In this document: in pieces, positions 1,915 to 38,492 of the stretch
Position numbering within the stretch: position 1 is the stretch's first letter
Layout of the letters: the number at the start of each line of letters is the position of its first letter
NCBI GenBank assembly: GCA_964571725.1
Contig: CAZNDB010000001.1
Span: forward strand, 322,544-386,543
Length of the DNA: 64,000 bases
Direction of reading: 5' to 3'
DNA from: an uncultured Candidatus Peribacteria bacterium
Lineage (GTDB): Bacteria > Patescibacteriota > Gracilibacteria > UBA1369
The notes under the pieces: model-generated
What the model was told of the DNA's origin: nothing
Databases searched by the model: none
What the model saw: the letters and a program-made list of their open reading frames with translations, nothing else
Position numbers and translations under genes: made by a program

Positions 1915-1929
1915 TCTCTCCAGCGTAGT

Positions 1930-1972
1930 TTGCCCGCTCCCCTGATGCGCTTGCGCAAAAGGGGACGGGCAA
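1930..1972 (+). terminator. GC-rich hairpin downstream of 1177-1914
   Basis: TTGCCCG(C)TCCCCT at 1930-1943 pairs with AGGGGACGGGCAA at 1960-1972. There is no clear U-tract. Confidence 0.4.
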
Positions 1973-2082
1973 CATCGCTTTCCCCAAAAACTTACCCAAA
2001 GCCGTTGAATGTATCTATTAATTGCATCCGCCGGCAGCCTCGCCTATATTAGTACGGAGGTTTATTTCCTGAACAAAAAATT

Positions 2083-4339: not shown

Positions 4340-4960
4340 ATGTCGCTGCTTCAATTCAAAATGATCGTCAATAAAAACAGCATAGCCAAACCGATGCCCA
4401 AACAAAAGTTAAAAATTATTATTCTGATTAATTTTACCTGGAGTATTCTGGGCTTTTACGCGGACTATCAGTGGCTGTCCATGGTGCCAACGCATCTTAT
4501 CCCTCTAACTGCCATTTGTTCACTGTATCCGCCGCTTTTAACTATCTGGTACCTGCTCAAATATTTTGATCGCAAAACGCCTGAGTGGTTTACCTACTGG
4601 CTGGTTTTGGGTACAGCCAGCTATTGGCTGGCCGCCCAGTTTTATTTTCCTCTGCTGATGTCCTGGAAGGGGATTAATTTCCATGATATCGGCTCGATGT
4701 TCTGGGTGTCGGTCTATGGCTGCCAGTCGCTTTTATTAATAAAATATCTAAAAAAGCCCTCGCTGAAGACCATACTGCCCGGATCGCTGTATATTTTGGC
4801 CGCGGATTTTACTCAATATTTCGCCCTGACTTTCGTGGACTTTACTATGGAAGGCTATCCCGTCTGGATGAAATATCTGACCGCGCTGGTCGCGATAGGC
4901 CTGCAAATAATTTGTTCAGTCTGGATTTACTTTCGCACTAGAAACAGCCAAATCCTTTGA
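4340..4960 (+). CDS. polytopic integral membrane protein (possibly DUF1405-like)
   Basis: ORF 4313-4960 has about 5-6 hydrophobic helices. The start is uncertain: the ATG at 4340 lies 1 nt from the divergent nth start, and alternative ATGs occur at 4361 and 4394. Confidence 0.5.
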   Translation: MSLLQFKMIVNKNSIAKPMPKQKLKIIILINFTWSILGFYADYQWLSMVPTHLIPLTAICSLYPPLLTIWYLLKYFDRKTPEWFTYWLVLGTASYWLAAQFYFPLLMSWKGINFHDIGSMFWVSVYGCQSLLLIKYLKKPSLKTILPGSLYILAADFTQYFALTFVDFTMEGYPVWMKYLTALVAIGLQIICSVWIYFRTRNSQIL

Positions 4961-8087: not shown

Positions 8088-8165
8088 TGGGGTGTCCAAT
8101 GGGTCTCGAACCCACGACCTCCAGAGCCACAATCTGGCGCTCTAACCAACTGAGCTATGGACACC
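8088..8165 (-). tRNA. tRNA-His (anticodon GTG), with G-1 and encoded CCA
   Basis: Reverse complement is GGTGTCCATAGCTCAGTTGGTTAGAGCGCCAGATTGTGGCTCTGGAGGTCGTGGGTTCGAGACCCATTGGACACCCCA. It folds as a cloverleaf with anticodon loop TTGTGGC. Confidence 0.9.
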
Positions 8166-8422: not shown

Positions 8423-8448
8423 AGGCCACTTGAACTTGCAAGTGGCCT
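8423..8448 (-). terminator. rho-independent terminator downstream of 8541-9470
   Basis: Perfect 10-bp stem AGGCCACTTG/CAAGTGGCCT with a 6-nt loop, followed on the minus strand by the T-rich run GTTGATTATTCTTTTC. Confidence 0.5.
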
Positions 8449-8540: not shown

Positions 8541-9470
8541 TTATATCTGAATTACTTCGAAAGCAGAAGTAATTATATCACCAGTATAAGAATAAGCAAG
8601 AAATTTTTCGAGATTAAATCCGATGATTGTAGAATCGTAATTTCTGGCGGTAAAAAGACTAAAGTCCTTATTCTCATCATTGCTGAATTCCTGTCCGGAG
8701 AAAACCATATCACGCATGAATATATACTTTTTTTCCAGAGCTTCATTTCCTGCCATAATTGTCCGGAAGTTTTCGCCGTGCAGTACATAAAAATTATAAG
8801 TTTCGGCAAAATCTTCAAAGGGGTCGGTCATGGCATAGCCGGTCACAAAGTCCTCCTCTTTGGCTGATTTTTTGATAGTTGATGCATTTAGGAAACTGAT
8901 TCTGTAAAAGCCCAGACTGGGATCATCCTGATAGATACTGCTCTTGCCGTCTTTGAATTCACTTTCCTTGACCCAAAAATTTCCGTTCATGACTCCCGTA
9001 TCCTGAATATGGCCCAATTCATGGACCAATACCGAAACCAGTTCCCCGTCACTAACGTTTTGGCAGCGCAGAATAATAGTTGACCCGCCTCCCAGCCCCC
9101 GACTGCCCTCCGGGCTGAAATATAAAGTCAGGTTCTTGATCTGTTTGGTGGTCTGCTCCGGCATGGCCTGGAGTGTCTTGTAAACCAGTGATGCACATTT
9201 GTTCTTTTCATAAGGATTATCCACACTGTCTTGGTCGTAATCCTGTCCCGGGTGCAGAGTAATCCCCAGGTCCGTGAGCCGTTTCAGATAATCCTGCTCT
9301 TCGATTTGAGAGTAGAGATCTGAAGTTAATTGAATGTTTTGGGCAACCGGACGGCTGTCATAACCGTTTTCAGTAAAGGCCTGTCCCGCCTCCAGAATTT
9401 CAGTTCCGAAATTCAGGCCGAAGATTGTCTGTATCCCGATAATAAAGGCAAAAAGATAAGTTCTTAGCAT
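8541..9470 (-). CDS. secreted or anchored gluzincin-type zinc metallopeptidase-like protein (HExxH plus downstream E-x-FAE)
   Basis: 309 aa. Has an N-terminal hydrophobic signal/anchor (LFAFIIGIQTIFGL), HELGH in VLVHELGHIQD, and DPFEDFAETYNFY about 75 aa downstream. Confidence 0.7.
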   Translation of the reverse strand: MLRTYLFAFIIGIQTIFGLNFGTEILEAGQAFTENGYDSRPVAQNIQLTSDLYSQIEEQDYLKRLTDLGITLHPGQDYDQDSVDNPYEKNKCASLVYKTLQAMPEQTTKQIKNLTLYFSPEGSRGLGGGSTIILRCQNVSDGELVSVLVHELGHIQDTGVMNGNFWVKESEFKDGKSSIYQDDPSLGFYRISFLNASTIKKSAKEEDFVTGYAMTDPFEDFAETYNFYVLHGENFRTIMAGNEALEKKYIFMRDMVFSGQEFSNDENKDFSLFTARNYDSTIIGFNLEKFLAYSYTGDIITSAFEVIQI

Positions 9471-9529
9471 GTTATTGCTGTTAACTGACCAATTTTGTCT
9501 TTATTTTTGGAATTTTAGCTGAAGAAGCG

Positions 9530-9557
9530 ATTATATACTAAAAGGGCCCAAAGTCAA
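9530..9557 (-). promoter_or_regulatory. near-consensus sigma70 promoter (TTGACT-16-TATAAT) for 8541-9470
   Basis: On the minus strand, TTGACT is at 9557-9552 and TATAAT at 9535-9530. Confidence 0.5.
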
Positions 9558-9588
9558 TGGGTGTGATATCTCGGCTTAATCGCTGAAT

Positions 9589-11199
9589 CTATTTTTTAAA
9601 TCTGACCAGGTATTTCAGAGTGCCTGTGCTTGAAACAAAAACGGTGCCGTGTGGCTCGCACTTGCCTTCCACCTTGCTTTTATCCACTTTTTCCTTCTCA
9701 ATCAGAAATCTCTCCGCGTCATCAATGCAGGCCAATAGTGTTTGATTCAGGGCTTTATCGTCTCCCTGCACATTATTCATTTGTTTCCCGACAATCATAT
9801 AGATGTAGCCATCAGTGGCCGCCCGGTATTTCAGATTATATCTGGCTTCCAGCTGCCCTCCGGCATTGGTATCGATGTAATTTTTGGCAATAGACTGATC
9901 TGCGCGCAGCAGACGATCCTTGATTGCGTCATTTACATCCTTTTCATCCTGTACAATTTCGCCGAATTTGGTGGCAAAAGCTTTCAATTCGTCCGGAGTA
10001 GCCTCATGTCCGAACCATTTTTTGTATTTTTCCGCCATCCAGAGAGCGGGGGCGCTGGAGGTCAGATAGTTATAACCGCGTTTGAACGAATCGCTGATTC
10101 CCTCGGTTACGCGGGAAGTCAGGCTTTCTTTCATTTTTATGTCCGTATCGTTGGACATTTCTATGATGGCGACCTGGCTGAAACTGATCGGGGGCTGATA
10201 TTTCTCATATTTCTTGAGATTGTCGGCCGGTCCGTATTTTTTCATGAAAATCTCAAAAGCGGCATAGGCCTCGTTTTTGGGCATCTTCATTCCGGGCACA
10301 TCGATAGCGCCTTGTCCTGCAGAGTATTGGGTCAACAGTACATTGAAGGGCGTATCTCCCATCTGTACAAAAGCCTTGGTCATCAGTTCTGCGCCTTTTT
10401 CATCTGTTCTGTAGGCCTCCATCAGAAATTTGCTGCCTCTGGGGCTTCCTTCGGTTGTGCCGGTGGCAAAGTCTACAAAACTTTCACCGGAAAACAGATA
10501 CCATACTTTATTGAACAACCAGGCTCCGCCTGCGACTTTCAGACCGGTCATCAACGTTTCCTTGATGGTTTTCATGATACCTTCCTCATTGGAGGATTTG
10601 AACATCCAGATTCCGCCCAACAGAGCCATGCCGGCCATGGCCAGCTTCTGTCCGGTGGATAATTTGTCCCAGTTTTCCCTGGCGTCTCCCAGCTTGTCCT
10701 GAATGGAGTCCATCACGCCCTGGGGTTTGGTAAAGATTGTTTTGCGGGCCTCTGCCGAAGCTTTGCTGACATTCAGAAAGCGGCTGGCCTGGGTTTTGAT
10801 CAGGTCATAAAATTCCCAAGCTGCTACTACCTTTTCCGCTTCACTGGCTTTCATGCTGGTGGGCGGAGTTTTCAGGTTTTCCAATGTGGAAAGCACCACG
10901 GCCTTGTCTCTTTCCATCAATTCCAGCTGGCCGTAGGTCTGTAATATCTTCCTGGCTTCAGTCAGTTTGCCGTTAATCATCTTTTCTGTAGCAGTTTTTC
11001 CTTCGGCAGTCAGATTGATGGCCGTATCCAGCTTAAATCCGTCTGCTCCGATCACGCCCGGTCTTTGCAGAAATTCCAGCACCCTTCTGTCATTCAGAGT
11101 CTGTTTATCGGGGGAAACCTCATTGTTAGAATCCTTGATGTCCCTTGCTCTCAGCGCGTCCAGACTTGTAGGTAACACCTCTTGATTTGATGGAGCCAT
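9589..11199 (-). CDS. hypothetical 536-aa protein with central hydrophobic hairpin
   Basis: Long ORF of native composition. No signal peptide. Two moderately hydrophobic segments (LAMAGMALLGGIWMF and GLKVAGGAWLFNKVWYLF) lie about 22 aa apart. Confidence 0.7.
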   Translation of the reverse strand: MAPSNQEVLPTSLDALRARDIKDSNNEVSPDKQTLNDRRVLEFLQRPGVIGADGFKLDTAINLTAEGKTATEKMINGKLTEARKILQTYGQLELMERDKAVVLSTLENLKTPPTSMKASEAEKVVAAWEFYDLIKTQASRFLNVSKASAEARKTIFTKPQGVMDSIQDKLGDARENWDKLSTGQKLAMAGMALLGGIWMFKSSNEEGIMKTIKETLMTGLKVAGGAWLFNKVWYLFSGESFVDFATGTTEGSPRGSKFLMEAYRTDEKGAELMTKAFVQMGDTPFNVLLTQYSAGQGAIDVPGMKMPKNEAYAAFEIFMKKYGPADNLKKYEKYQPPISFSQVAIIEMSNDTDIKMKESLTSRVTEGISDSFKRGYNYLTSSAPALWMAEKYKKWFGHEATPDELKAFATKFGEIVQDEKDVNDAIKDRLLRADQSIAKNYIDTNAGGQLEARYNLKYRAATDGYIYMIVGKQMNNVQGDDKALNQTLLACIDDAERFLIEKEKVDKSKVEGKCEPHGTVFVSSTGTLKYLVRFKK

Positions 11200-11226
11200 T
11201 TACAAGGCATAGTGATTAATCCTTAT

Positions 11227-11256
11227 ATTCTAGCACAAAAAGGAGGATTTCATCAA
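11227..11256 (-). promoter_or_regulatory. candidate extended -10 promoter (TTGATG-18-TGcTAGAAT) for 9589-11199
   Basis: Hexamers read on the minus strand between the upstream terminator and the ATG at 11199. Confidence 0.4.
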
Positions 11257-11276
11257 GGCTGGCAGACTATATTACA

Positions 11277-11322
11277 AACCAAAAATGAGGGAAGAGCAAG
11301 CGATCCTTGCTTCCCCCTCATT
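11277..11322 (-). terminator. rho-independent terminator after 11337-13703
   Basis: AATGAGGG...CCCTCATT stem with an extended imperfect helix and a CGATC loop, followed on the minus strand by TTTTTGGTTTG. Confidence 0.65.
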
Positions 11323-11336
11323 TACTTGAATAGCGT

Positions 11337-13703
11337 CTATTTGGAAGGAACAACCTGTCCTGGATTATATTGTAAATACCAGTTTACAAATTTCAGGTAT
11401 CCGACCCAGTACTCGGCATCCAGTCGTGCCAGGCGGGATTGATGTAGTGTCATTCCTTCGTGGTTTTGCAGTGATTGTTGAATTTTGGTCAGTTTGGATT
11501 GAATCTCGGACAGGTTGACTGAATATTGGTTGACCGAGGGGTTGGAACCGGAATGTCCATTATGAATAATACTGAATCGGGCTGCCTGTGAACCGGCCAG
11601 CTTTTGAGTTTCCTGTAAAAGCTTCTGGGCATGCCCCTGGGGAACCATAGCTTCTGCCACATTTACCAGCTTTACGGTTGTTTCGGCTTCAGCCATCGTT
11701 GTATCAATGGCTCTGAGCATTTCATTGATCTTTTCCAGATCCGCAACCTTTTCCATTGTTTTCATTTGGGCAATTACTGAATCCAGTTTTGGCAGTACTG
11801 TGTCCAGTCTCAGATCAACATTTCGTTTTGCGATCTGCGGGGCCAGGATTTTCGCATCAGCCTCAATCTCGGACAGCCGGCGTTTATATGCCGATACTTT
11901 TGCTTCCACCAGCCGCAGTTCCGCGAATTTCTCAGTCAGGGTCAGTACCTGGGTAGATTTATCCTCCACAGTAGGCCGTGATATCACCTCCTGAGGGGGT
12001 CTGACTATTTCCGGAGTCCGGACTCTGGCTGTTTTGAGCAGTCGGGGAGCCGGCGCAGGGTTAATTCTTTGTGGTCTGCTGTGCTGTACCACCGGAGTTC
12101 GGTTTACCTTCTCAGGTTGCGGAGCAGGAACAACCTGTCTAACCGGTTCCTGCACCACCGGGGTTTTTAGATCTTCAACAGGCGGATTCTGACTTTCCTG
12201 TAATGTAAATTCCTCATCACGCTTTTTGTCATTATGATTAACGGTTTCCGTAGTGGGATTTTCACCACTGTCGGTATTGGCCGCTGTGTCGGATGGAACA
12301 GGGGCCTCATTGCCGGAATTCAAATACTTGTTTGGTCCGACCAGAATTCCCAATCCCAGAGCTGCTGCACCGGCCGCCAAAGCAGAAGCAGTACGCCAAA
12401 ATTTTCGTTTTTGGGGAGGAACAGGAGGTTCATTGCCACTTCCGCCTCCCTTTCCATCTCCGCTTCCAACGGTAGCGGTACTGTTTATTGAGTTAATACT
12501 TAGTTTGCGCAAATTGGGTTTTGGGGCTGCCGGTTTGGCAGGCGAAGAAACCGCCTTGATAATGTTTTCTCTGACCCTGAGTAAACGGGAGTCGTTCAGC
12601 ATTTCATCGATGTTTTCCCGGGCGGAATGATTGGCTTCCAGGGCTTCCAGATCCTGATTATATTTTTCGGTTCTGCAGGCAAGTCTGTACTCGACCATAG
12701 TTTTAACTGCCTGATAATGGACTGAATTTTCGTCAAATTTACATTCAACAACAAAGTCACTAAGCATCAGCCGGTCAGTCGTATTAAAGCGGGGGATGCT
12801 GTCGCCATAGTTATATTTAACGTATTGAGCGATAGAGTCGTAAGCCGAGTTGATTTGTCTCAGGTCTCTTTGATAATCCAGCCGGAGTTTCTCCAAATCA
12901 TAAGCCTTTTGACGTTTGAGGCCCTCCAATATTTCGATTTTGGGAGTAGCCTGCAATGTATCGGGTAACAACGCGTCGATAGCCCTGGGCAAAGCCGTAA
13001 CAACAGACTTAGCAGCTCCCAGTAAAGCTCTACCAAGATTTTTTAATCTTGAACCGCGATACTGTGCAGTGGAGTCATACCTGCGTTTCATTTCATTTTG
13101 TTCTGCTTCCTGCAGACTCAGTTCGTCCAGATAATCGGTCAGTCTCAGTTTTTCATCTACCAGCAAAGCAGTCTGACGGTCGGGAGCACTTCGTAAAAAA
13201 GCATCCAATTCGGCATCTCCCAGATCTTCCTGCGGATAATCCAGATTTTCCAGAGTCAGTCGGTTGTTGCCTGGATCAAGCGTAAGTTTGCTCTCCGGAA
13301 TCGCGGATGGGACAACATTGATCGGCACCTCGTTAACTACGGAGATGTTGGTGGTTTCGGTAAGTACCCTGTTGGCAAATTTGGCAAATGCCGCTGCGGC
13401 AGGAGAATAATTCTGGTGTTCATTATATTCATAACGGTTATTGAACCCCGGCAATAAGGCCTGTCTGGTCTCGTCAATAATTGCCACAGCAGCTGAGCTC
13501 ATCGAATTTTCCAATCCGGGCAAAACGGCTTGTCCCTGTGAATCAATCAGCCTTCCCTGATGAATTTCAGGGGATTTGGGCGTTTCATCAACTTTGTATC
13601 GGACCCCGCTGTCAGCAAGGTTATCGCGAAAATCAGCCCGGGCTGGTGAATCCTCTCCTTTTACTATTCTCAGTTGTAGAACGGAGGCTCGTTGATTGTG
13701 CAT
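11337..13703 (-). CDS. hypothetical 788-aa protein with a single central transmembrane helix, a Pro-rich segment and coiled coils
   Basis: Long ORF. KRKFWR precedes the helix TASALAAGAAALGLGILVGP. No N-terminal signal peptide and no recognisable catalytic motif. Confidence 0.7.
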   Translation of the reverse strand: MHNQRASVLQLRIVKGEDSPARADFRDNLADSGVRYKVDETPKSPEIHQGRLIDSQGQAVLPGLENSMSSAAVAIIDETRQALLPGFNNRYEYNEHQNYSPAAAAFAKFANRVLTETTNISVVNEVPINVVPSAIPESKLTLDPGNNRLTLENLDYPQEDLGDAELDAFLRSAPDRQTALLVDEKLRLTDYLDELSLQEAEQNEMKRRYDSTAQYRGSRLKNLGRALLGAAKSVVTALPRAIDALLPDTLQATPKIEILEGLKRQKAYDLEKLRLDYQRDLRQINSAYDSIAQYVKYNYGDSIPRFNTTDRLMLSDFVVECKFDENSVHYQAVKTMVEYRLACRTEKYNQDLEALEANHSARENIDEMLNDSRLLRVRENIIKAVSSPAKPAAPKPNLRKLSINSINSTATVGSGDGKGGGSGNEPPVPPQKRKFWRTASALAAGAAALGLGILVGPNKYLNSGNEAPVPSDTAANTDSGENPTTETVNHNDKKRDEEFTLQESQNPPVEDLKTPVVQEPVRQVVPAPQPEKVNRTPVVQHSRPQRINPAPAPRLLKTARVRTPEIVRPPQEVISRPTVEDKSTQVLTLTEKFAELRLVEAKVSAYKRRLSEIEADAKILAPQIAKRNVDLRLDTVLPKLDSVIAQMKTMEKVADLEKINEMLRAIDTTMAEAETTVKLVNVAEAMVPQGHAQKLLQETQKLAGSQAARFSIIHNGHSGSNPSVNQYSVNLSEIQSKLTKIQQSLQNHEGMTLHQSRLARLDAEYWVGYLKFVNWYLQYNPGQVVPSK

Positions 13704-13765
13704 ATGGTTCGATTAACAAAAATACTTGGAGCTGAAAACTTTTCTAAAATTTATAATTAAAAATA

Positions 13766-13788
13766 GGCGATACTATTACATTATCGCC
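13766..13788 (-). terminator. rho-independent terminator after 13821-18227
   Basis: GGCGATA/TATCGCC stem with a 9-nt loop, followed on the minus strand by TATTTTTAATTATAAATTTT. Confidence 0.55.
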
Positions 13789-13820
13789 CAACCTTGTCAA
13801 GAGAGGGAATTATTTTATAA

Positions 13821-16800
13821 TCAGTTTTTACGCAGCAGTTTGAGCCAGGCCAATACGGTTTTGGCAGTGCTTAACATAGTCGTTACCTCCTTGATTTTAC
13901 CGCTTCTGAGCATTTCACTGATTTTTTGTAATGAATCGGATTTGTTTAAAGCTTCCAGCAGATCAACCGGCTGGTTATTGGAAATGGCCAGGGAAAGAGC
14001 GGCCCTCTTCTTATTCTTCTTGGGCAGCAATTCTTTTCCCGCATAAGTTAAAGTAAACAGGAAGGTTAACACATCGGGATATTGATTTATCAATTTGATA
14101 AAATTGACGTATTTTTTGCTGTCGCTCAATTTAAGTTCGCCGAAAAAGTGCAGTATCAGATTGGTCACCATGCTGTCCGCCCCAATTAGCGCTCCCAGAT
14201 TTTCCAGAGCCCGCTTTTCCAGTTCCTCAAATTTAGTAGCTTCGGCCTGATCTTTGCTCAAAATAACTATTTCAGTGGCCGGAGTAAGCGCGGGTGCGGA
14301 AGTAAGAGCTGGAACAGAAGTAGGCGCAGGTGCGGGAGTGGGGGCGGTAGCGGCTGTCGGGGCAGGTGCAGGGGCGGCGGGAGCGGGAGTGGATTCCGGA
14401 GCCGGAGTGGAGGCGGGGGAAGGTGCAGGTGTAGGTGAGGGTGTAGGGGAGGCAGCAGGTGCGGCCGTCGTGGTTGCGATGCGCCTTTTATGCCATTCTT
14501 CAGGAATTTCCATCAGTCCGACTCCGTAAGATTCCATTTCCGTAAGAATATCCGCCAGGGGACGGGCATCGGCAGATAAAAATTTGTAATAAAATTCAAT
14601 GAACTCTGCAATCTGATCGCTTCTTGGCTCAAGACTTTCCCTGTTCAGTAAATTCAGATTGGTAGCAAGATTTAACATGAAATCATAGAGACGTGTCGAG
14701 AAAAAAGCATCAAAATCTTCTATTGTGGAAATGTTAAACACAGACATCAGGTACTTGGCAATCGGTCTGAAATCGGCTGTAGCATTTACGAAAACGCCTT
14801 GCAGCCAAAGATTTATATTTTCAGACAAAATATCAAATCTTTCAATTTCCTCGGAAGCAAGGCCTCCTATGTGCAGATTGTTTTCCAGGTCCAGATAGGC
14901 TGTGGAGCGCAACTCTGGTAATTCGCCGGGCAGTCCCGCGCCAAAGTCAACATTGGCAAATTGAATCTTATTTTTATACCAATAAACTTGTCCGCCATTA
15001 TCTCTGGTATGTCCGTGTATCACTCTGTGAATTCCCAGGTCAGCCAGCTTGTCCAATTGGGCTGTTATGGCCGGATCGGTCAATGATTTCTGGAAATTTC
15101 TGTTTTTGGGGTGCAGAAACATTCTGCAAAGCTCGGTAAAACGGGGATATCCAGTCATTTGTTTTTGCTCTAGTAAAAGAGCTTTCAGCGTATCAGAAAA
15201 TTCCCGGTTTAGTCCGGCAATTGTATCGTCAAGATTAGGGCCACGGGTCAATTCAGTCAGAATATCCGGGGTGAGTTCCGTGTGTATAAACATAGTGTCC
15301 CCATCTCGGGAAAGCAGTTTCATTTTACAGATTTCCTCCAGTAGTTTCTTTCCTTCAACGTCTGCAAGCATATTCTGTCTGACCTCTTTCCCCAAGGCCA
15401 GAAACTTATCCGTATCGCTGTTAAAATTTTTGTCAATATCCTGTTTAATCTCTTCCATAACATCACCCTTGAAGGATTGGCCATACTGTGTATAACGAGC
15501 TATAAATTCTGTAATGCCGAGTCCCTGCCAAGAGTTGATCATCGCGTTGCCCCAGCTGTGTCTGGCAGCCAATAGATCTCCCTCGCCGGCCATCAGACGA
15601 TCTGTCAGAAAAGCAACTGCCAGGTCTTCGTGGTTGCCAAAATGCGAAACAATTACCCCGTTCTGTTCTGCTGCGGCCTGCCTCAATTCCGTTAACGTGG
15701 TCAATATATCCAGGCCATTGGTTAGTCTGTCGCCGATATTGTCACCGATCAGAATCAATTTTCTGTTGCCGGCAATCCATGACCAGGTCTGATCCGGGTG
15801 GATTTCAATTATTTTCAGAGTTACAAGATTGTTGATAAAAGCCTCATAGCTGCCGTTTAAGTCTCCAATTATTAGTACCTCAGTATGTCTTGGTACCTCA
15901 TGGGCTTCCAGTACAGTCGGCGGGGGAAGTGTACTGATTGTGGTTTGTAATACTGGTGCCGGAGCAGGTCCGGGCGCAGACGGGGGTGCAGCGGGAGGTG
16001 CCGGGGGAGTTACTGGTGCGGGTGCCGGAGCGGGAGTAGGAGCCGTAGCAGGTGCAGGCGCAGACGGCGGTGCAGCGGGAGGTGCCGGGGGAGTTACTGG
16101 TGCGGGTGCCGGAGCGGGAGCAGGTGCGGGCGCTGGTGCAGGCGCAGACGGCGGTGCGGCGGGAGGTGCCGGGGGAGTTACTGGTGCGGGTGCCGGAGCG
16201 GGAGCAGGTGCGGGCGCTGGTGCAGGTGCAGACGGCGGTGCGGCGGGAGGTGCCGGGGGAGTTACTGGTGTGGGTGCAGGAGCGGGAGCAGGTGCGGGCG
16301 CAGGAGTTGGAGCAGGAGCAGGTGCTGGCGGCGTCGGGAATTGCGTAAGCGGGGGCAGTGTGAATTTCGGAATTAAGGGGGATTCATCGTCAGGCAAACG
16401 TCTGCTTTTCAGAAGCTCAAGTTTTTTCTGAACTTTTTTCAGTTCTTCACGTGCCGCATTCAGTTTGGGGTTAACAGATACCAGGGATGGTTCTATACCC
16501 ATAGTGCCCAACTCTTTATTTAAAATTTCCACCAGCCGTCCCTCCAGACCGTGATCTGCTTCATACTGCAGTACTTTTTCACGCAGTTTAAGATAAGTCT
16601 CACTAATCGCGGTGACATGTGACTTATAAGCCTCTTGTCCCATCCTGTTCACCTTTGGCAAGCGTGCCTGCCAGCTTCTTATCAACGTTACGTGATCTCC
16701 GAATTCCAGCCAGAATAGTCGTTCAGCCTCCGGAATGGACATTTTTTTGACGGATTTTTCTTTCTTATCGATTTCTCTAACTTCTTCCTGAAAAGTTGCT

Positions 16801-18227
16801 TTTTGTTTCTCCGCTTCTTCTTTTGTTTTCTTCAATTGTGCGGTTCGTTCTGCTATTGCCTCCAAAGCCGAGGCACCAAGTGCCTGAATATGGGATAACC
16901 TTTGTTCCAGCCTGGTTTGCCTGTCTCTGAATTCCGCATAGGTGGTGGTATTGGCTACATAGGAAGACAGCGCGTTCTGATTCCCCTCGACGCTGACTGT
17001 GTCGGGAGCCAGCTGCCGTGCCTTGACCAATATATATAATTCCAATTCAATCAAATCCTTTTCAATACTGGTTTGCAGATTGAAGGCATGAAAATATTTG
17101 CCGTCGTCCCGCTGCCCGTAAATAATTTCTCCTCCCACGACCGAGTCGAGTGACTGTAACAAGGTGGAATTGATTCTGCCGTTCTGTACGTCCTGTTCCA
17201 ATTGAGCTATTTCTTCTGCTTTTTGAAAATCGTTGACCCAGTCCTCGGACTCCCTGATTTTTGACACGATCGCCGCCAGTTTTTTACTAATGTCTTTTTT
17301 GACGGTCTCATTTGTTCCCAAGGCCGTAGAAAGCTTCTTCAGCGTTTCTTCCAGTTGTGCGATTCCGGCCAATAAAGTAGGTTTTTTGCGGCGGCTGGAT
17401 TCCAGATCGGCTTTATCTTTGGTGATTTTTTCAGCGGCTTTTACACCTGCCGAGGGATTATCGGCTTCTCTTTTGGATGGTAAATCGTAGGCTTTAGCCG
17501 ACCCCAATCTCAGCACCCGTCCAATTTTATGCATAAAGCCCTTGGTGGCCCGTCCGACTTTCCCGTCCCCCAAATCTTTGGCAACATCAGGGTTGACTGT
17601 CTTGGCGGGCATTAATCTGGCGAACTTATCGGAACTCTGTTCCGGTCCCTGCTGGTTGGGCATTAACTTGGCGAAAGCATCAGGCCCCGTTTGGAGAGAC
17701 ATACCCGAACTGGTGAGTTTAGCTTGCGCGGCAACTTCCTCCGTTTGAGTTGTTTTGATGGTCAGAACTCTGTTCAAGACGGATTGCTTGATCGTGTCCA
17801 ACAGGGCATCGTCAACGCCTGTTATACTCTGTTTGATGGTTTCCTCAATATCATTGTTTGCGTACAAATATTCTTTTACCGACTCATCAATTGCTTCGTG
17901 AATAAGATATTCGTTTGCAACATTGGTTAAATGCGCTTTGTCCAAAAGACTGTTTTTCTCTAGATTTTTTCTAATTAAAACGGAAAGTTCCCCGGCCAGA
18001 TGACGATCGGGATAAACGGCAAATATTAAATCCGCCAGTTTGGCTTCATCCAAAATAGCCAGTCTATCGGCCAACACACTGCTCTTCAGTTTGCCAATAT
18101 CCAACGGAAGCTTTTGAGCCAGATCAATTGCATAATCATGGGCGAAAGCATTTTGAAAAGCATCCAGATTCGGATCATCCGAGTCGGTATATTTTTCAGC
18201 TCCATATGTATTGGGACCGCTGACCAT
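13821..18227 (-). CDS. giant 1468-aa protein with a PPP/calcineurin-like metallophosphoesterase core flanked by Pro/Ala-rich linkers
   Basis: The motifs occur in canonical order: GDLNGS (a GDxHG variant), GDNIGDR, GNHE, and later VIHGHTRD. PAPAP/VTPPAPPAAPPSA repeats lie N-terminal of the core and a TP/AP-rich linker lies C-terminal. No signal peptide. Confidence 0.8.
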   Translation of the reverse strand: MVSGPNTYGAEKYTDSDDPNLDAFQNAFAHDYAIDLAQKLPLDIGKLKSSVLADRLAILDEAKLADLIFAVYPDRHLAGELSVLIRKNLEKNSLLDKAHLTNVANEYLIHEAIDESVKEYLYANNDIEETIKQSITGVDDALLDTIKQSVLNRVLTIKTTQTEEVAAQAKLTSSGMSLQTGPDAFAKLMPNQQGPEQSSDKFARLMPAKTVNPDVAKDLGDGKVGRATKGFMHKIGRVLRLGSAKAYDLPSKREADNPSAGVKAAEKITKDKADLESSRRKKPTLLAGIAQLEETLKKLSTALGTNETVKKDISKKLAAIVSKIRESEDWVNDFQKAEEIAQLEQDVQNGRINSTLLQSLDSVVGGEIIYGQRDDGKYFHAFNLQTSIEKDLIELELYILVKARQLAPDTVSVEGNQNALSSYVANTTTYAEFRDRQTRLEQRLSHIQALGASALEAIAERTAQLKKTKEEAEKQKATFQEEVREIDKKEKSVKKMSIPEAERLFWLEFGDHVTLIRSWQARLPKVNRMGQEAYKSHVTAISETYLKLREKVLQYEADHGLEGRLVEILNKELGTMGIEPSLVSVNPKLNAAREELKKVQKKLELLKSRRLPDDESPLIPKFTLPPLTQFPTPPAPAPAPTPAPAPAPAPAPTPVTPPAPPAAPPSAPAPAPAPAPAPAPAPVTPPAPPAAPPSAPAPAPAPAPAPAPAPVTPPAPPAAPPSAPAPATAPTPAPAPAPVTPPAPPAAPPSAPGPAPAPVLQTTISTLPPPTVLEAHEVPRHTEVLIIGDLNGSYEAFINNLVTLKIIEIHPDQTWSWIAGNRKLILIGDNIGDRLTNGLDILTTLTELRQAAAEQNGVIVSHFGNHEDLAVAFLTDRLMAGEGDLLAARHSWGNAMINSWQGLGITEFIARYTQYGQSFKGDVMEEIKQDIDKNFNSDTDKFLALGKEVRQNMLADVEGKKLLEEICKMKLLSRDGDTMFIHTELTPDILTELTRGPNLDDTIAGLNREFSDTLKALLLEQKQMTGYPRFTELCRMFLHPKNRNFQKSLTDPAITAQLDKLADLGIHRVIHGHTRDNGGQVYWYKNKIQFANVDFGAGLPGELPELRSTAYLDLENNLHIGGLASEEIERFDILSENINLWLQGVFVNATADFRPIAKYLMSVFNISTIEDFDAFFSTRLYDFMLNLATNLNLLNRESLEPRSDQIAEFIEFYYKFLSADARPLADILTEMESYGVGLMEIPEEWHKRRIATTTAAPAASPTPSPTPAPSPASTPAPESTPAPAAPAPAPTAATAPTPAPAPTSVPALTSAPALTPATEIVILSKDQAEATKFEELEKRALENLGALIGADSMVTNLILHFFGELKLSDSKKYVNFIKLINQYPDVLTFLFTLTYAGKELLPKKNKKRAALSLAISNNQPVDLLEALNKSDSLQKISEMLRSGKIKEVTTMLSTAKTVLAWLKLLRKN
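15976..16311 (-). repeat. four tandem 84-bp (28-aa) coding repeats, GC-rich, inside 13821-18227
   Basis: The unit starting GCAGACGGCGGTGC recurs at 15976, 16060, 16144 and 16228, an exact 84-nt period. It encodes VTPPAPPAAPPSAPAPAPAPAPAPAPAP. Confidence 0.85.
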
Positions 18228-18611
18228 TTAATTGGTTTTATTGACTGAATTTAACTTTTCATCAATGCTTCTGGAATTCTCAACCAGTTCATCAAACAAG
18301 TCGCTTACCGCCTCTAAAATCTTATTATCAAGTCCGGGAATATAAGAGGTGATTATACTTAAAGCATCTATTTCGTCAAGTTCGGGGTGGTCCTCCAGTG
18401 TTTTCTGCAACAGAAAGACTTCCTTTTCTCCCAGTGAGGCTACGACTACGGCTGTCACGCGCTCACTTAAAGTCTGGGCAATTTCGTTACTCAGCTCTTC
18501 AATAACCTCAGGACTGGCCTTATCCATTTTGATTTCTTTCAGCAGCATCTGAATGAAATTTTCAGTGTTGAAATAAATTCCGTTTCTTCTGGTTGATTGT
18601 GTTTTTTTCAT
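18228..18611 (-). CDS. small acidic hypothetical protein (127 aa), translationally coupled to the 1468-aa gene
   Basis: Its stop TAA (18230-18228) abuts the ATG at 18227. It starts 9 nt after the stop of the 1072-aa gene. Rich in Asp/Glu, with no TM segment. Confidence 0.65.
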   Translation of the reverse strand: MKKTQSTRRNGIYFNTENFIQMLLKEIKMDKASPEVIEELSNEIAQTLSERVTAVVVASLGEKEVFLLQKTLEDHPELDEIDALSIITSYIPGLDNKILEAVSDLFDELVENSRSIDEKLNSVNKTN

Positions 18612-18620
18612 ATTGGTTAA

Positions 18621-21600
18621 TTAAGCTGCTTTGGAAATAACTTCTCCGTTGTCATTGGCTGCCTCGCTGTATAAAGCTATCGGTCCCAGATTCAATTGTT
18701 TCTCTGCGGCGATCTTTCTGTATTCATTGGCGGCTCCGTTTAATTCATAGATTTGTTCTTCTATACTGTTGATCTTTCTGGCGGCACGTTTTTTATCCCA
18801 GCTGTAAGGCATTCCCGAGATTTTGGCCTGCAGGCGTTTTTGTCTGGCGACCAGCTTATCGATGCGTTTTTCGTACTCGAGAATTCTGTCTTTGAGGTAA
18901 CTTCTCATGAAGTTTCGGTTGAATTGGCCAAGTAAACGTTTGGGCATATGCGTGGTGCGTACCATGGCCCTGCCGATCAATCTCACCGGGAAAGTGCCGT
19001 ATTTCCAGGCAAAGCCCAGTGGAGCGGTAACGGGAGTGGCAATCATTCGGCCGACACTGAAAGACTTCTTGGCCAGGCTTCTGGCCGTGGCGGCATTCAA
19101 AAACTTCTTGCGGCTCCAATTCCAGGAGGTTTTGGTTCCGGACCAGAACGCCTTGGCTCCCTGTTTTGTGTAATGCCAGCCCTTTTGTAATCTGAAATTG
19201 GTGGACATTTTGTTAAACACCTGGGTAAGTCCTACCGATTGCAGATATTCGCGTTTCTCCCTTCTGCTCAAATTGTTTTCATCAATATACTTTTTGGCGG
19301 CCTCCACTCTTTCGTATAAATCTTTGGATTGGGCAATTTGTTTATCCACTGTGGAAATTTCATCGCGCAGATTTTGGACTTCCCTGGTCAGTCTCAGCCG
19401 GTTAGGGTCGGCTTCCGGCAGAGCGTTCATTTCGGTTTCCATTTTGGAAATGCGCGCGCGTTTTTCTTCGATGCCGGCAGTTTTTAGTTTGTTCAGCCCT
19501 TCCAGTGACTTTTTGTTTAAAATTCTCTTTAAATCATTTTTGACCAGCAGCACCCGCCACATGGCATCGGGATTTTTCACGTCTTTGGTCAGGGATTCCT
19601 CAACTTGCCGTTCTTGCGTACGGCTTTCGCGAAGCATTTTTACCAGAACTTTTTCTCTTTCACCCGGCTCAGCGGTCTGGTTCACTTTATCCAGAAATTC
19701 TCGTGACCACATCTCAATCTTAACTTTTTTCAGTACTTCAATCAGGTTTTCCAGATCCCAGTCGTCCGGGTCCAGCCCTTTCTCCAGACTGGGTTTCACT
19801 TTTTTAAATCGGGAAACTGCTTCTTCCAATATCAGGGAAAACCTTTCCAGCGTTTCACGTTTCACCACCCGTCCGGATTTATTGAGAGTATGTTTCAGAC
19901 GTCGGGGCGTGGTGAACTTATTGATCCCGTTGAAAACGCTGAAGGTTTCATCGGAATTAATTACTGACTGCAGCAACTTGTCAGAAGTCATATTGGCAAA
20001 ATCAATCGGTTCCAGTCCGATAAAGTCCTGTCCGCTGGCCACGGCATTTTTGACTCTATTCCAGCCGCGTCCCAGCACGCCTCGGTCCATAATTTCCGCT
20101 CCCTGCTGGTTGGCCGTTCGCTTGATATCGATACTCTTTACTTTCTCCAGCCTCAGCGCGGCCTTAACGTTTGCATAATGGTTGGCTTCCTCGTTGTATA
20201 CTGTTTCGTCCAACTTATGCTTGCGCATGTAATCCTTGCGCATAAAACGCTGTGTCAGCTCAAAGGGTGTGAGCTTGGCTGGATTGACTGAGGGTTTGAT
20301 ATCGTCAATAGCAACTTTTATAGTCTTAAAACCCTCGTGCAACTTGTCAACAGCGTCATGATCATTGAAGTCGAATGGTCCAAGAACAGTTTCAAGAGTT
20401 TTATAAGAGGGTGCTGTCAGGTCAATGAGCTTGGGATGTAAGGAAAGCAAATCCTTTAATCCATCAACAGAGGCTCTTAGGCTTTTTACATTTTTTGCCA
20501 TTTGTGGTTCAAGCACATTCAACCTTTCATTTTCGGCTTTCTTTTTGTCGTCAGGAGAGGAAGTACCGCTTCCTTCGATAACCAGTAATTCTGCCCTTCT
20601 TTGTACAAAAGCTGACTGTTCCGCGATGGCCTGGCGAATGGTTTGAATAATTTTGTTGGTTTCCGCTTTCAAATGCTCAATAGCCTGGGCCTCGGCCGCG
20701 TCAACGGCCCCAGGAAGAGTTTCGTTTTTGATAAAAGTATCAATTTCAGCGGTAACTTGTTTTGCCGCAGCATTGAGGTCCGGAGCTTCTCCCGTGGCAA
20801 TCAAAAAATAAAGCCTGCCGCGCAATTCCGCCATAAACATTGTGGTTTCCTGACTTGTTTGAAGCTGATACAGGGAGTTATCCTCCAAAGCGGCTTTCAC
20901 TTGGTCTGCCAGGGCTTTACATTCAGGACTGCCCGTAACCAGCATATTCCAGAACTCTCTTAACGGTTGATGATTGTAGACCTCGGCCGAACCGGCTTCG
21001 TCACCGCTTTCCTGGTCAGAATTTGCAACCAGCAACAAGTCCAGGAAGGCCCGTTCTTCGCTTAAAGGCTCGGGTGGGTTTGCCTTTCTGCACCATTTAC
21101 GCAGATTTCTCAATTCTGAGAGTGTAAGCTGGGACAATCTGTTTGTGGCATCCGCGATGGGGGCACCTGCAATCAATCCGATACGAGCCATTATTTCGTC
21201 ATAACGTGTGGGATTGGTACTTTGAATTAAAGTTAACGGCTCCGTCAGTCTGTTGGCCACAAACAGTCTTTGTGCCTCCAGGCTGGGGTTCTTGCCAAAT
21301 CTTTTGTTTATCTGGGCTTCAATATAGGGGCTGGTGCCAATCATTGAGCCAACACCGCGCAGAACTCGTACAAACTGCCTGCCCACCCTTCTGGGAAGGG
21401 GGCTTTCCATGTGTTCCACTCCCTCCGAACCCTGATAATGCAATGAGTCCTCACCTAATTCGGTTTCATAATTTTCGTTACCCTGTACTGCGCGGTACAA
21501 TTTATTTCGTACCCTTTCCTCACCTAATTCGGTTTCGTAATTTTCGTTACCCTGTACTGCGCGGTACAATTTATTTCGTACCCTTTCCTCCTTGATCCTG

Positions 21601-21839
21601 TTTAATTCGGGGCTGCCTCCGCCTGCCGGCAGGGGACGGCCTCGGGTCAGCGCGTGGGCAACCTGTTCATTTATGCCGGTTTGTATCAGTGAAACATTGC
21701 GGGCGATTTGGGCGTTAAATTCATAAAATTCCCGGTTTTCGTCCTCCACCTGTCGCAATACGCGTTCATTTCTTTCTTCCTGGTCGGAAAGATTGGGTTG
21801 TTCCTGTGGCAAATGCCCAAAGCGGGGTACCTTTGACAT
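18621..21839 (-). CDS. hypothetical 1072-aa coiled-coil-rich protein
   Basis: Long ORF of native composition. No signal peptide. Contains an internal exact 23-aa duplication near the N-terminus. First gene of the 1072/127/1468 operon. Confidence 0.7.
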   Translation of the reverse strand: MSKVPRFGHLPQEQPNLSDQEERNERVLRQVEDENREFYEFNAQIARNVSLIQTGINEQVAHALTRGRPLPAGGGSPELNRIKEERVRNKLYRAVQGNENYETELGEERVRNKLYRAVQGNENYETELGEDSLHYQGSEGVEHMESPLPRRVGRQFVRVLRGVGSMIGTSPYIEAQINKRFGKNPSLEAQRLFVANRLTEPLTLIQSTNPTRYDEIMARIGLIAGAPIADATNRLSQLTLSELRNLRKWCRKANPPEPLSEERAFLDLLLVANSDQESGDEAGSAEVYNHQPLREFWNMLVTGSPECKALADQVKAALEDNSLYQLQTSQETTMFMAELRGRLYFLIATGEAPDLNAAAKQVTAEIDTFIKNETLPGAVDAAEAQAIEHLKAETNKIIQTIRQAIAEQSAFVQRRAELLVIEGSGTSSPDDKKKAENERLNVLEPQMAKNVKSLRASVDGLKDLLSLHPKLIDLTAPSYKTLETVLGPFDFNDHDAVDKLHEGFKTIKVAIDDIKPSVNPAKLTPFELTQRFMRKDYMRKHKLDETVYNEEANHYANVKAALRLEKVKSIDIKRTANQQGAEIMDRGVLGRGWNRVKNAVASGQDFIGLEPIDFANMTSDKLLQSVINSDETFSVFNGINKFTTPRRLKHTLNKSGRVVKRETLERFSLILEEAVSRFKKVKPSLEKGLDPDDWDLENLIEVLKKVKIEMWSREFLDKVNQTAEPGEREKVLVKMLRESRTQERQVEESLTKDVKNPDAMWRVLLVKNDLKRILNKKSLEGLNKLKTAGIEEKRARISKMETEMNALPEADPNRLRLTREVQNLRDEISTVDKQIAQSKDLYERVEAAKKYIDENNLSRREKREYLQSVGLTQVFNKMSTNFRLQKGWHYTKQGAKAFWSGTKTSWNWSRKKFLNAATARSLAKKSFSVGRMIATPVTAPLGFAWKYGTFPVRLIGRAMVRTTHMPKRLLGQFNRNFMRSYLKDRILEYEKRIDKLVARQKRLQAKISGMPYSWDKKRAARKINSIEEQIYELNGAANEYRKIAAEKQLNLGPIALYSEAANDNGEVISKAA
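21451..21588 (-). repeat. 2 x 69-bp tandem duplication (1 mismatch) within 18621-21839
   Basis: TCACCTAATTCGGTTTC(A/G)TAATTTTCGTTACCCTGTACTGCGCGGTACAATTTATTTCGTACCCTTTCC occurs at 21451-21519 and 21520-21588. It encodes EERVRNKLYRAVQGNENYETELG twice. Confidence 0.9.
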
Positions 21840-21959: not shown

Positions 21960-23231
21960 ATGAAAATTACATCAGAGAAAATGGCTAAGGCAGAAGTAAA
22001 GCTGATTGTGGAACTGACGGAACTGGAAATGGAGAATTATTATCAGAAAGCCCTGGAAAAGCTGGCATCACAAATTAACGTAAAAGGTTTTCGTCCCGGC
22101 AAAGTGCCCCATGAAGTGGCCGAACAGCAATTGGAAAAAGGTTATATCATGGCCCATGCCATAGACCTTGCCATTCCCCCTACCTACATTGAATCCGTTA
22201 AACAGGAGAAAATTGAGCCGATCGCCCAGCCCAAAGTAACCATCGTCAACGACAAGCCCCTTAAATATGAGGCGATCATTCCGGTTTATCCCGAAGTCAA
22301 AGTAAAGGATTACAAGAAAATCAAGCTGGAGGGGAAAAAAGTTGAGGTTACCGACGCGATGGTGGAGGAAGAAGTAAAACATTTGATTGGCTATCACGCC
22401 ACATTCAGTGAAGTGACGGATCGTCCGGCCGCCATGGGGGACAGGGTGGAAATTGATTTTAACGGTTTTGACGAAACAGGGGTGCCTTTGGAAGGTACCA
22501 CCAGCAAGAATCACCCGATGATACTGGGTGAAAAGACCTTTGTCCCGGGATTCGAGGAAAATTTGGAAGGAATGAAAATAGGGGATGAAAAAGAATTTAC
22601 CGTCACTTTTCCCGCGGATTATTTTCACAAACCTTTTCAGAGCAAACCGGTCAAGTTCAAGGTCAAGCTTAACAGGCTGGAAGAAAGACATGTTCCCGAA
22701 CTGAACGCCGAGTTTATTAAAAAAGTTGCGGGGAAGGAAATGACTGAAGCAGAATTTAAAACGGAAGTAAAAAACAACCTGATGAAAGCCCGCGAACAGG
22801 AGGAGCAAAACCGTCTGGAAAGTCTGTTGCTGGAAAAAATTCGCGATAATACCGAAGTTGACCTGGCCGAGAGCCTGGTGGACGAAGAAATCCATTATCT
22901 GCTTGATGAAATCAAAGAGAATGCCACCAGCAGGGGCATTAACTGGGAGGATTATCTGAAGGCTACCGGTAAAACCGAACAGCAGTTGCATGAGGAGAAA
23001 AAGGGCGACGCCGAGAAAAGATTAAAGCTCCGCTTTGGGGTACAGGAGATTTTTAAGCTGGAAAAAATTGACGCTACCGACGAAGACCTGGACAAAGCTT
23101 TCCAGGACGAAATGAAAATACTTGCGTCCATGAATTATGAGCCTAAAATAGAGGAGCAGGAGATGCTCAAGGTCCGCCTGAAAAATAAAATTAAACTGGA
23201 AAAACTGATCGCGGTTTTCCTCAAACAATAA
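21960..23231 (+). CDS. tig: trigger factor
   Basis: 423 aa. Has the N-terminal ribosome-binding motif region (VKGFRPGKVP), a central FKBP-like segment, and typical length. Confidence 0.9.
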   Translation: MKITSEKMAKAEVKLIVELTELEMENYYQKALEKLASQINVKGFRPGKVPHEVAEQQLEKGYIMAHAIDLAIPPTYIESVKQEKIEPIAQPKVTIVNDKPLKYEAIIPVYPEVKVKDYKKIKLEGKKVEVTDAMVEEEVKHLIGYHATFSEVTDRPAAMGDRVEIDFNGFDETGVPLEGTTSKNHPMILGEKTFVPGFEENLEGMKIGDEKEFTVTFPADYFHKPFQSKPVKFKVKLNRLEERHVPELNAEFIKKVAGKEMTEAEFKTEVKNNLMKAREQEEQNRLESLLLEKIRDNTEVDLAESLVDEEIHYLLDEIKENATSRGINWEDYLKATGKTEQQLHEEKKGDAEKRLKLRFGVQEIFKLEKIDATDEDLDKAFQDEMKILASMNYEPKIEEQEMLKVRLKNKIKLEKLIAVFLKQ

Positions 23232-27277: not shown

Positions 27278-27340
27278 TCTTTGTAATAGGACAACTTTAT
27301 CTGAATTTAAGAAGATGATTAAGCTATAATACAAAAAACG

Positions 27341-38282: not shown

Positions 38283-38300
38283 AACTATCAAAAAACCAAA

Positions 38301-38492
38301 ATGGAACAAGCAAGTGCTGCAAATCAATCAAATCAAATTAAAAGAGAACTGGAGTTTTTCGGTGAAAAAGTCCTGATAGTGATGGAAGCCGACGGAAGTT
38401 ATTCCGTTTATGCTGACGGAAAAGAAATTGAATTTCTTCCCTGGGCTTTGGAGAAACAAAAATCAATGAAATCAGCGTCTGACCATGAATAA
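38301..38492 (+). CDS. hypothetical small protein (63 aa)
   Basis: ORF whose stop overlaps the ATG of the 988-aa gene (ATGAATAAA). Confidence 0.45.
   Translation: MEQASAANQSNQIKRELEFFGEKVLIVMEADGSYSVYADGKEIEFLPWALEKQKSMKSASDHE

Follow-up and report, generated by a model that had tools for sequence, protein, structure and literature searches.

A six-gene cluster conserved between tig and tRNA-His in Peregrinibacteria/Peribacteria, with a divergent PPP phosphatase module and a predicted zincin-like protein

A block of six consecutive genes, located on the minus strand at positions 8541-21839 of a 64,000-nucleotide stretch of DNA (the window, meaning that whole stretch), was characterized by computational analysis. 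The host genome is that of a bacterium of the candidate phyla radiation (CPR), Peregrinibacteria/Peribacteria lineage. Much of bacterial diversity belongs to the CPR, about half of whose genes lack a known function, and conserved clusters of uncharacterised proteins are common in CPR genomes. The original prediction had described the block as an effector-like locus of orphan giant proteins with embedded enzyme domains.

The described systems with which the block was compared are the following. MapZ, RodZ and proteins of the TonB/TolA type are built of a cytoplasmic domain, one transmembrane (TM) segment, a proline-rich spacer and an outer domain, and the cytoplasmic part of MapZ is controlled by a kinase/phosphatase pair. 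The Shelphs are bacterial-type PPP phosphatases, represented by the protein-tyrosine phosphatase of Shewanella (PDB 1v73/2z72); a long insert between the GNHE motif and the H(A/G)G-type motif is a trait of the group, and in motif GDxHG of the PPP signature the Asp and His are ligands of metal 1 (PMC535813). WipA of Legionella is a Dot/Icm effector that combines a PPP-fold tyrosine phosphatase with a helical hairpin and needs the IcmSW chaperone (PMC5454105). In the lineage studied here many large exported proteins have been noted, exported proteins are often cysteine-rich, and the six-gene cluster was not treated (PMC4736985).

Gene order and inheritance of the cluster

The six open reading frames (ORFs) were found at the predicted coordinates and with the predicted lengths. 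They are designated A to F in the order of transcription, and their positions and those of the associated features are detailed in Table 1. Loci of related genomes (L numbers) were fetched around tig, around B and around database matches, and were compared with the window proteins by tblastn and ORF-by-ORF BLAST. Relatives of tig in species-representative genomes were all CPR, labelled Peregrinibacteria, Peribacteria or Gracilibacteria, with a best identity of 76%. Genetic code 25 was considered for the window, given that some relatives are labelled Gracilibacteria, and was ruled out, as TGA ends 6 of 37 long ORFs (TAA 21, TAG 10) and the ORFs are intact under code 11.

Homologues of all six proteins were found in the same order in close relatives, and within the lineage the proteins are thus not orphans as had been proposed. 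The order tig / A-B-C-D-E-F / tRNA-His was kept in L002, L003, L005, L024 and L026, the loci of L002 and L005 ending before E. In more distant relatives, with tig identities of 40-47% (L010-L015, L017, L028-L031, L034, L037 and L040), A and B are often followed by an unmatched ORF, X (580-675 aa), then by E (540-840 aa), sometimes by Y (~255 aa), and then by F where the contig reaches that far. B lies beside A in every related locus examined, A being immediately 5' of B in 21 distinct loci; F follows E in 12 loci. Among the more distant Peregrinibacteria loci, the majority have A, B, E and F in the interval from tig to tRNA-His, and altogether more than 20 related genomes carry an A-B-(C/X)-(D)-E-F arrangement in that position. 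The cluster was found in every related locus covering the site. These results show a constant core formed by A (~1000 aa), B (~120 aa), E (~540-840 aa) and F (~290 aa), and a variable slot formed by C/X, D and Y. In the family of the window, the slot between B and E holds C and D. A profile-profile comparison of X with C gave E = 0.0034 and 9% probability over one motif only (LFWHEFGD-like), which is a hint only, and that of X with D gave nothing.

Some loci depart from this order. Two opposite-strand ORFs of 506 and 340 aa break up the cluster in L009 (3130-5678), and the A-B pair is several kb away from tig in L016 and L018. In the distant relative L012 a 507-aa protein with a trypsin-like serine-protease domain (1745-3268, minus strand) is encoded between F and a conserved 224-aa neighbour; it is a second exported-protease gene at the same cluster end.

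None of the characteristics of a genomic island was found. The cluster is present at all covered sites, and domain scans detected no integrase among the flank proteins, as the original prediction had stated. Composition was confirmed to be native, with a GC content of 0.39-0.48 and a correlation of relative synonymous codon usage (RSCU) with 14 housekeeping genes of the window of r = 0.87. The adjacency to tRNA-His is real, but the tRNA ends at 8164 and not at 8165; because all 8 related loci tested have tRNA-His after F, this adjacency reflects ancestral gene order and not an integration scar or junction. Absence of conservation, which had been named as evidence for non-functional ORFs, was contradicted by homologues with intact ORFs of 300-1500 codons in many genomes. 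It is thus well supported that the block is a vertically inherited cluster specific to Peregrinibacteria/Peribacteria, situated in the conserved backbone between tig and tRNA-His, and not an island.

For E, compared with a relative sharing 88% identity, the ratio of non-synonymous to synonymous substitution rates (dN/dS) was 0.059, and for F, compared with one sharing 76%, it was 0.071; both genes are under strong purifying selection. Values for D and for the tail of C against L045 were dropped as uninformative, D having 3 differing sites and the differences of C being clustered at a contig end. Identities to L026 were 45% for A, 27% for C, 42% for D, 74% for B, 57% for E and 59% for F, compared with 76% for tig and 92% for a 185-aa neighbour.

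Table 1. Positions of the six genes and of associated features in the window (TRF, Tandem Repeats Finder).
Feature	Position	Strand	Remarks
Gene A	18621-21839	minus	1072 aa; first gene of A-B-C operon, divergent from tig
Gene B	18228-18611	minus	127 aa
Gene C	13821-18227	minus	1468 aa
Gene D	11337-13703	minus	788 aa
Gene E	9589-11199	minus	536 aa
Gene F	8541-9470	minus	309 aa
Tandem duplication in A	21448-21590	minus	TRF: 69 bp x 2.1 copies, 98% matches, in frame
Linker 1 of C, Pro/Ala-rich	15903-16388	minus	aa 614-775
Tandem repeat in linker 1 of C	15955-16304	minus	TRF: 84 bp x 4.2 copies, 93% matches
Shelph-like PPP (calcineurin-like metallophosphoesterase) domain of C, predicted	14823-15920	minus	aa ~770-1135
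Linker 2 of C, Pro/Ala/Thr/Ser-rich	14253-14498	minus	aa 1244-1325
TM segment of D, predicted	12336-12392	minus	aa 438-456; KRK..R on N side
Hydrophobic hairpin of E	10513-10644	minus	aa 186-200 and 215-229
HELGH motif of F	9009-9023	minus	aa 150-154
DPFEDFAE motif of F	8802-8825	minus	aa 216-223
Promoter-like site for D	13800-13772	minus	promoter scan; overlaps terminator-like hairpin after C
Promoter-like site for F	9557-9530	minus	promoter scan
Terminator-like hairpin and T-run 3' of C	13766-13788	minus	GGCGATA...TATCGCC-TTTTT, read in sequence
Strong terminator-like hairpin and T-run 3' of D	11277-11322	minus	AAATGAGGGGGAAGCAAG...CTTGCTCTTCCCTCATTTTT, read in sequence
Terminator-like hairpin 3' of F	8423-8448	minus	called by terminator scan
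tRNA-His(GTG)	8088-8164	minus	conserved downstream neighbour of F
Trigger factor gene tig	21960-23231	plus	divergent upstream neighbour, 120-nt intergenic region; synteny anchor

Architecture of the six proteins

The proposed layout, an A-B-C operon followed by separately terminated units, was borne out by the intergenic gaps and by three terminator-like hairpins. A-B-C is a tightly coupled operon, because the gaps are 9 nt (A-B) and 0 nt (B-C); the remaining gaps are 117 nt (C-D), 137 nt (D-E) and 118 nt (E-F). The hairpins after C and D were seen by eye, and the terminator scan did not call either. Promoter-like sites were found by the promoter scan 5' of D, E and F.

Proteins A, B and C have neither signal peptide nor TM segment, contain two, no and two Cys, respectively, and are predicted to be cytoplasmic. 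Among the regions of A, a basic, Trp/Lys/Arg-rich C-terminal one (residues ~843-1016) is conserved most widely, and homologues of the protein have 950-1260 aa. An AlphaFold2 model of A (9 sequences) was entirely helical, with a predicted local distance difference test score (pLDDT) of 62 and a predicted template modelling score (pTM) of 0.30. The tandem duplication in A doubles a 23-aa motif, EERVRNKLYRAVQGNENYETELG (residues 84-106 and 107-129), which is invariant in 9 close homologues. B is acidic (24 D/E versus 14 K/R) and carries the conserved motif DHPELDEID.

The general description of the large proteins given previously was partly maintained. The lack of N-terminal signal peptides holds for A to E, whose N-termini are not hydrophobic, but not for F, which has a hydrophobic N-terminus. 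Internal hydrophobic segments were confirmed, strong in D and moderate in E. The abundance of coiled coil and low complexity was overstated for C and E: by a crude, home-made heptad score, 10% of A, 17% of D and 2% of C were heptad-like, with hardly any in E, and low complexity was found only in C (19% of residues, the Pro/Ala linkers).

Protein C is modular and consists of a conserved N-terminal region (residues ~187-580), linker 1, the PPP domain, a helical region, linker 2 and a conserved C-terminal domain (1335-1468). Its PPP motifs are GDLNGS (788-793), GDNIGDR (828-834), GNHED (864-868), HGHT (1071-1074) and VDFGAG (1093-1098). A PPP profile of five homologues matched PDB entries 2z72, 1v73 and 2zbm with E = 3.3e-11 to 8.9e-11 at profile positions 10-100, and the phosphatase sequence of C alone matched the cold-active tyrosine phosphatase of Shewanella with E = 0.014. 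Pfam Metallophos was detected in 4 of 5 members of the module (best 5.3e-6), and a NinI-like phosphatase of PHROGs matched C at 1e-4. A word-indexed homology search with the phosphatase region of C alone returned nothing, which reflects limits of database and indexing and not orphan status, because tblastn later found relatives in the genome loci. On the basis of these profile matches, the predicted assignment of the module to the PPP fold is considered sound.

Motifs GNHED and HGHT are invariant in the five PPP sequences. Motif I (GDxHG) reads GDLNG in the window, L002 and L005 and ADVSG in L004, and the region is missing from the L006 ORF; its metal-binding His is replaced by Asn in the window and by Ser in L004. 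Motif II (GDxxDRG) reads GDNIGDR-L in the window and GD[IN][ILM]xDR-[VLE] in the relatives, with one extra residue and no trailing Gly, GD and DR being invariant. In place of the bacterial (I/L/V)D(S/T)G motif the sequences have N-[VA]-D-[FL]-G, Phe or Leu replacing Ser/Thr. The homology behind the predicted PPP-like phosphatase of the 1468-aa protein is thus real, but the motifs are altered, and the description of the fold as 'eukaryote-facing' is not sustained, the module being of bacterial (Shelph) type and without the metal-binding His of motif I. As in the Shelphs, the N-terminal subdomain aligns, GD..DR, GNH(E/D) and HGHT are kept, and a long insert separates GNHE from the H(A/G)G-type motif; the module differs from them in GDLNG, GDxxxDR[LVE] and VDFG and in its setting between Pro/Ala linkers within a 1468-aa protein.

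Matches of the module to Pfam WipA_Phos had E = 0.003-0.09 (0.003 in 2 of 5 members) and did not near the cut-off of 27 bits. C resembles WipA in its phosphoesterase fold family and helical modules, and the small acidic B beside C is loosely adaptor-like. It differs in that no Dot/Icm system is present here, in that C belongs to a vertically inherited backbone cluster, and in that the PPP module is optional. The likeness is one of analogy, not of membership.

Of 8 close C-type loci, 5 contain the PPP module, as a fusion into C in three (the window, L002 and L005) and as a stand-alone ORF of ~430 aa in two (L004 and L006); in L003, L024 and L026 the C homologues are without it and keep the N- and C-terminal domains only. 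In L004 (4775-6502) the stand-alone PPP ORF lies, together with a 133-aa A-like fragment, between A and B. In L006 (2772-4154) the PPP similarity runs further 5' than the start called for the ORF, pointing to a frameshift or to a different start site. The full 1468-aa product of C is absent from a collection of 15 billion proteins in which the other five products are present, and the sole other copy seen was a 732-aa fragment cut by a contig end (L001). The repeat-rich Pro/Ala linkers of C probably break short-read assemblies, and public assemblies may not give the copy number at 15955-16304 reliably.

Protein D comprises an N-domain (residues 1-437), the strong TM segment, a Pro-rich spacer (~480-590) and a heptad-rich C-terminal domain ending in the aromatic motif YWVGYLKFVNWYLQYNPG. 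According to the positive-inside rule, D would be bitopic with the N-terminus inside and the C-terminus outside, placing the Pro-rich stretch and the heptad-rich domain outside the cell. It has the same domain order as MapZ, RodZ and TonB/TolA designs; this likeness is architectural only, no sequence or profile similarity being found. Homologues of D were found only in the closer relatives. Protein E has a conserved, Gly-rich hydrophobic hairpin of moderate hydrophobicity between its N- and C-domains, and this is probably a membrane hairpin. Its AlphaFold2 model (18 sequences; pLDDT 66.5, pTM 0.45) placed an unconfident hairpin in the centre, between a helical N-domain and an alpha/beta C-domain. 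The E family is narrow, with 76 cluster representatives among 1.84 billion, and the sole organism-named match is a Peregrinibacteria protein.

Protein F has the N-terminal hydrophobic stretch MLRTYLFAFIIGIQTIFGL. The HExxH protein predicted for the block was confirmed: F carries HELGH, of which H150, E151, G153 and H154 are invariant in 6 homologues. The DPFEDFAE motif is conserved, lies 62-69 residues after H154 and provides Glu/Asp candidates for the third zinc ligand, and Cys 92 and Cys 136 are invariant. Scores against Pfam PF15887 (24.6 bits, cut-off 27) and PF15890 (24.1 bits, cut-off 25.6) were below threshold; TIGR04549 scored 28 bits (cut-off 75) and PDB 9urd gave E = 0.0044. F shares with Peptidase_Mx/Mx1 (PF15887/PF15890) and with TIGR04549/9urd the HExxH motif, an exported N-terminus and an aligning downstream motif, YAMTDPFEDFAE. 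It differs from TIGR04549, the 'substrate import-associated zinc metallohydrolase lipoprotein', in having neither a lipobox Cys nor a SusC/TonB context, and only ~50 residues align. F is predicted to be an exported or membrane-anchored HExxH zincin-like protein whose family membership is not established.

No curated-family match was obtained in Pfam, NCBIfam or PHROGs for A, B, D and E, for the non-catalytic parts of C, or for the X and Y ORFs. Pfam searches were also negative for 11 E-family members, 10 distant E relatives and 51 A/B/X/D/C/Y members, and among 10 variable-slot ORFs they detected only a trypsin-like domain, in one unrelated neighbour. PDB profile searches with A, B, D and E gave chance or generic coiled-coil matches only (coiled-coil E of at least 0.014). 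Foldseek searches of the A and E models against PDB and BFVD gave nothing at E <= 1e-3, and the models appear too weak for a new-fold claim. A scan of viral contigs with the E profile found no relative, and no phage structural match was found in PHROGs for the six proteins. Profile and structure searches thus detected no homology to phage structural, cytoskeletal or S-layer families, named in the original prediction as possible contrary evidence, and no SLH domains in the block proteins. Paralogy among the six proteins was not detected, nor were fusion ('Rosetta stone') proteins joining the families among 110 retrieved sequences.

Surrounding genes of the window

The housekeeping neighbours are tig, L19, RNase HII, IF-2, S1, ClpB, RuvB, DnaE, AspRS, iPGM, LexA and DinB. 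Envelope genes of the window include an M23 peptidase (4916-6460), an M23 peptidase with three SLH domains (49609-51561, minus strand), a CsaB-type polysaccharide pyruvyl transferase (26147-27334, minus strand) and rmlA/B/D. The SLH-M23 peptidase and the CsaB-type transferase point to an envelope of the S-layer/secondary cell-wall polymer type, which is relevant to the site of the outer domain of D and of F.

A link of the block to the region 38004-41451 and to a coupling-protein-like ATPase at 57475-59943 had been suggested and was found to have no basis. These lie 17 and 36 kb off, behind IF-2, S1, ClpB, RuvB, DnaE and AspRS; genes for translation, repair and chaperones also lie between the two. 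The former contains a 988-aa protein with a GDSL-lipase domain (38485-41451). The latter is a VirD4/TrwB-like coupling-protein ATPase (plus strand, 822 aa) with an unmatched N-terminal extension of ~400 aa; its gene begins 3 nt after aspS, and the genes that come next are those of a peptidoglycan hydrolase with 3D and PG_binding_1 domains, lexA and dinB. No VirB4 or other gene of a type IV secretion system (T4SS) was recognised in the window besides this ATPase.

A 185-aa protein encoded just downstream of tig and next to L19 (23581-24138, plus strand) has 60-93% identity across all related genomes, versus 40-76% for tig, and only weak ArsR/winged helix-turn-helix-like and DUF7342 matches. It resembles a lineage-specific DNA-binding protein under high constraint.

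The segment 27,700-31,950 (~4.2 kb), between the CsaB-like pyruvyl transferase gene and rmlA, has a GC content of 62-68% versus ~47% for the genome and an RSCU correlation with housekeeping genes of r = 0.24. Its products have signal-peptide or lipobox-like sequences (LAGCDD, STGCDDGG) and Gly/Ser/Asn/Cys-rich repeats, one being a beta-rich protein, and gave no Pfam match; the same interval in related genomes holds ~5 kb of unrelated sequence. As a candidate horizontally acquired or hypervariable surface-protein island, this segment outranks the six-gene block.

Possible functions of the cluster

With D and E predicted to be membrane proteins and F carrying a signal or anchor sequence, at least half of the block would be envelope-resident and not translocated cargo. 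The envelope-themed neighbourhood (M23, CsaB-like, rmlA/B/D and SLH-M23) was counted in the same direction, as were the low Cys numbers of A, B and C in a lineage whose exported proteins are often cysteine-rich. We infer, tentatively and with somewhat less than even confidence, that the products stay with the producing cell as a membrane-anchored assembly in envelope organisation or remodelling. A, B and C would be cytoplasmic and co-translated from one operon, A forming a long helical scaffold that reaches the membrane via its basic, aromatic C-terminal region. D and E would anchor the assembly in the membrane, D projecting a proline-rich stalk and a coiled-coil domain outward, and F would act as a zinc hydrolase in the wall space. 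The PPP module, where present, may bind or dephosphorylate phospho-proteins locally, and control of the MapZ type by a kinase/phosphatase pair would give a rationale for such a module near D. The candidate role is the organising or remodelling of the cell envelope, in division, in shape or at a contact site.

Several observations weigh against this proposal. Both AlphaFold2 models rate low to moderate in confidence. A separate promoter or terminator appears to serve each of D, E and F. The flanking tig, L19, RNase HII and pyruvyl transferase genes are equally syntenic, gene order being kept region-wide in these small genomes, so that the co-location of E and F with A-C is weak evidence of shared function. 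Catalysis by the PPP domain of C is uncertain because motif I is without its canonical His, and no gene of the window was recognised as encoding a protein kinase. A small acidic protein coupled to large signal-less proteins is also the layout of a chaperone-effector operon. Finally, A, C and D have changed much more rapidly than the genes around them, and A and C carry recent in-frame repeats; fast divergence with in-frame repeats is typical of surface or host-interaction proteins.

Some of these points would equally fit a block that is not one system, with A-B-C as the only functional unit and D, E and F as independent genes held in place by segment-wide synteny, F being for example a general wall or nutrient peptidase. 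This explanation is considered somewhat unlikely. It agrees with the 117-137 nt gaps and terminator-like or promoter-like sites that set D, E and F apart, with the equal synteny of the flanking housekeeping genes, with the interrupted cluster of L009 and the displaced A-B pairs of L016 and L018, and with the lack of fusion proteins joining the families; the order and strand of A-B-...-E-F were nevertheless kept where many other neighbours changed, and the variable slot is always inside the cluster, never splitting it. The last two points of the preceding paragraph belong rather to an effector function, in which A, C and perhaps D would serve an episymbiotic CPR cell as translocated effectors or surface interaction proteins, with B as a chaperone or adaptor and the phosphatase and protease as a payload. 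The size, helicity and missing signal peptides of A-C, the small acidic B translationally coupled to A and C, the fast divergence and recent in-frame repeat expansions among A, C and D, the swapping of an enzyme module in and out of C, and the VirD4-like ATPase in the window are all consistent with it, as are the nearest characterised relatives of the PPP domain, the Shewanella tyrosine phosphatase and, weakly, Legionella WipA (PMC5454105). Against these stand the WipA_Phos match, which is far below threshold, and the position of the VirD4-like gene, 36 kb off between aspS and a peptidoglycan hydrolase gene with no other recognised T4SS gene in the window. Classical effector repertoires are variable and island-borne, whereas this cluster has a fixed backbone position, is present in all covered related loci and shows order-level synteny; D and E would be membrane proteins of the producer, half of the products being membrane or exported proteins, and E and F are under strong purifying selection. 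An effector function is thus judged unlikely.

An origin in mobile, phage-derived or decaying DNA, that is, a degraded island or prophage remnant beside tRNA-His with non-functional ORFs, is effectively refuted. The adjoining tRNA, the large ORFs without curated-family match and the repeats within genes could have been read in that way; tRNA-His, however, follows F in all eight loci, codon usage is native, and integrase, PHROG structural matches and viral-contig relatives of E are lacking, while the ORFs are intact over 300-1500 codons in many genomes and dN/dS is 0.06-0.07 for E and F. More speculatively, and with little probability, A-B-(X/C)-(D)-E-(Y)-F might be an undescribed, Peregrinibacteria-specific trans-envelope apparatus at work where the cell meets a partner cell. 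E and D would then provide the membrane parts, A a cytoplasmic scaffold and B an adaptor, and the C-type proteins, with or without the PPP module, would be exchangeable cargo or regulators. If true, such an apparatus would represent a novel type of machine for cell-cell interaction or secretion, made from families without known relatives.

The cluster is neither an island nor a demonstrated effector locus. Defined families take the place of the 'effector island' idea, A, B, E and F forming the core and C and D the variable slot. Both enzyme modules belong, as divergent variants, to superfamilies already known, and the other families are restricted to one CPR lineage. The domain of C, being without the motif I His, is well suited as a test case for PPP phosphatases of atypical or pseudo-enzyme type. 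The fixed place and order throughout the lineage, together with purifying selection, make a part in core biology, such as envelope organisation, division or partner contact, likelier than it would be for a strain-specific ORF.

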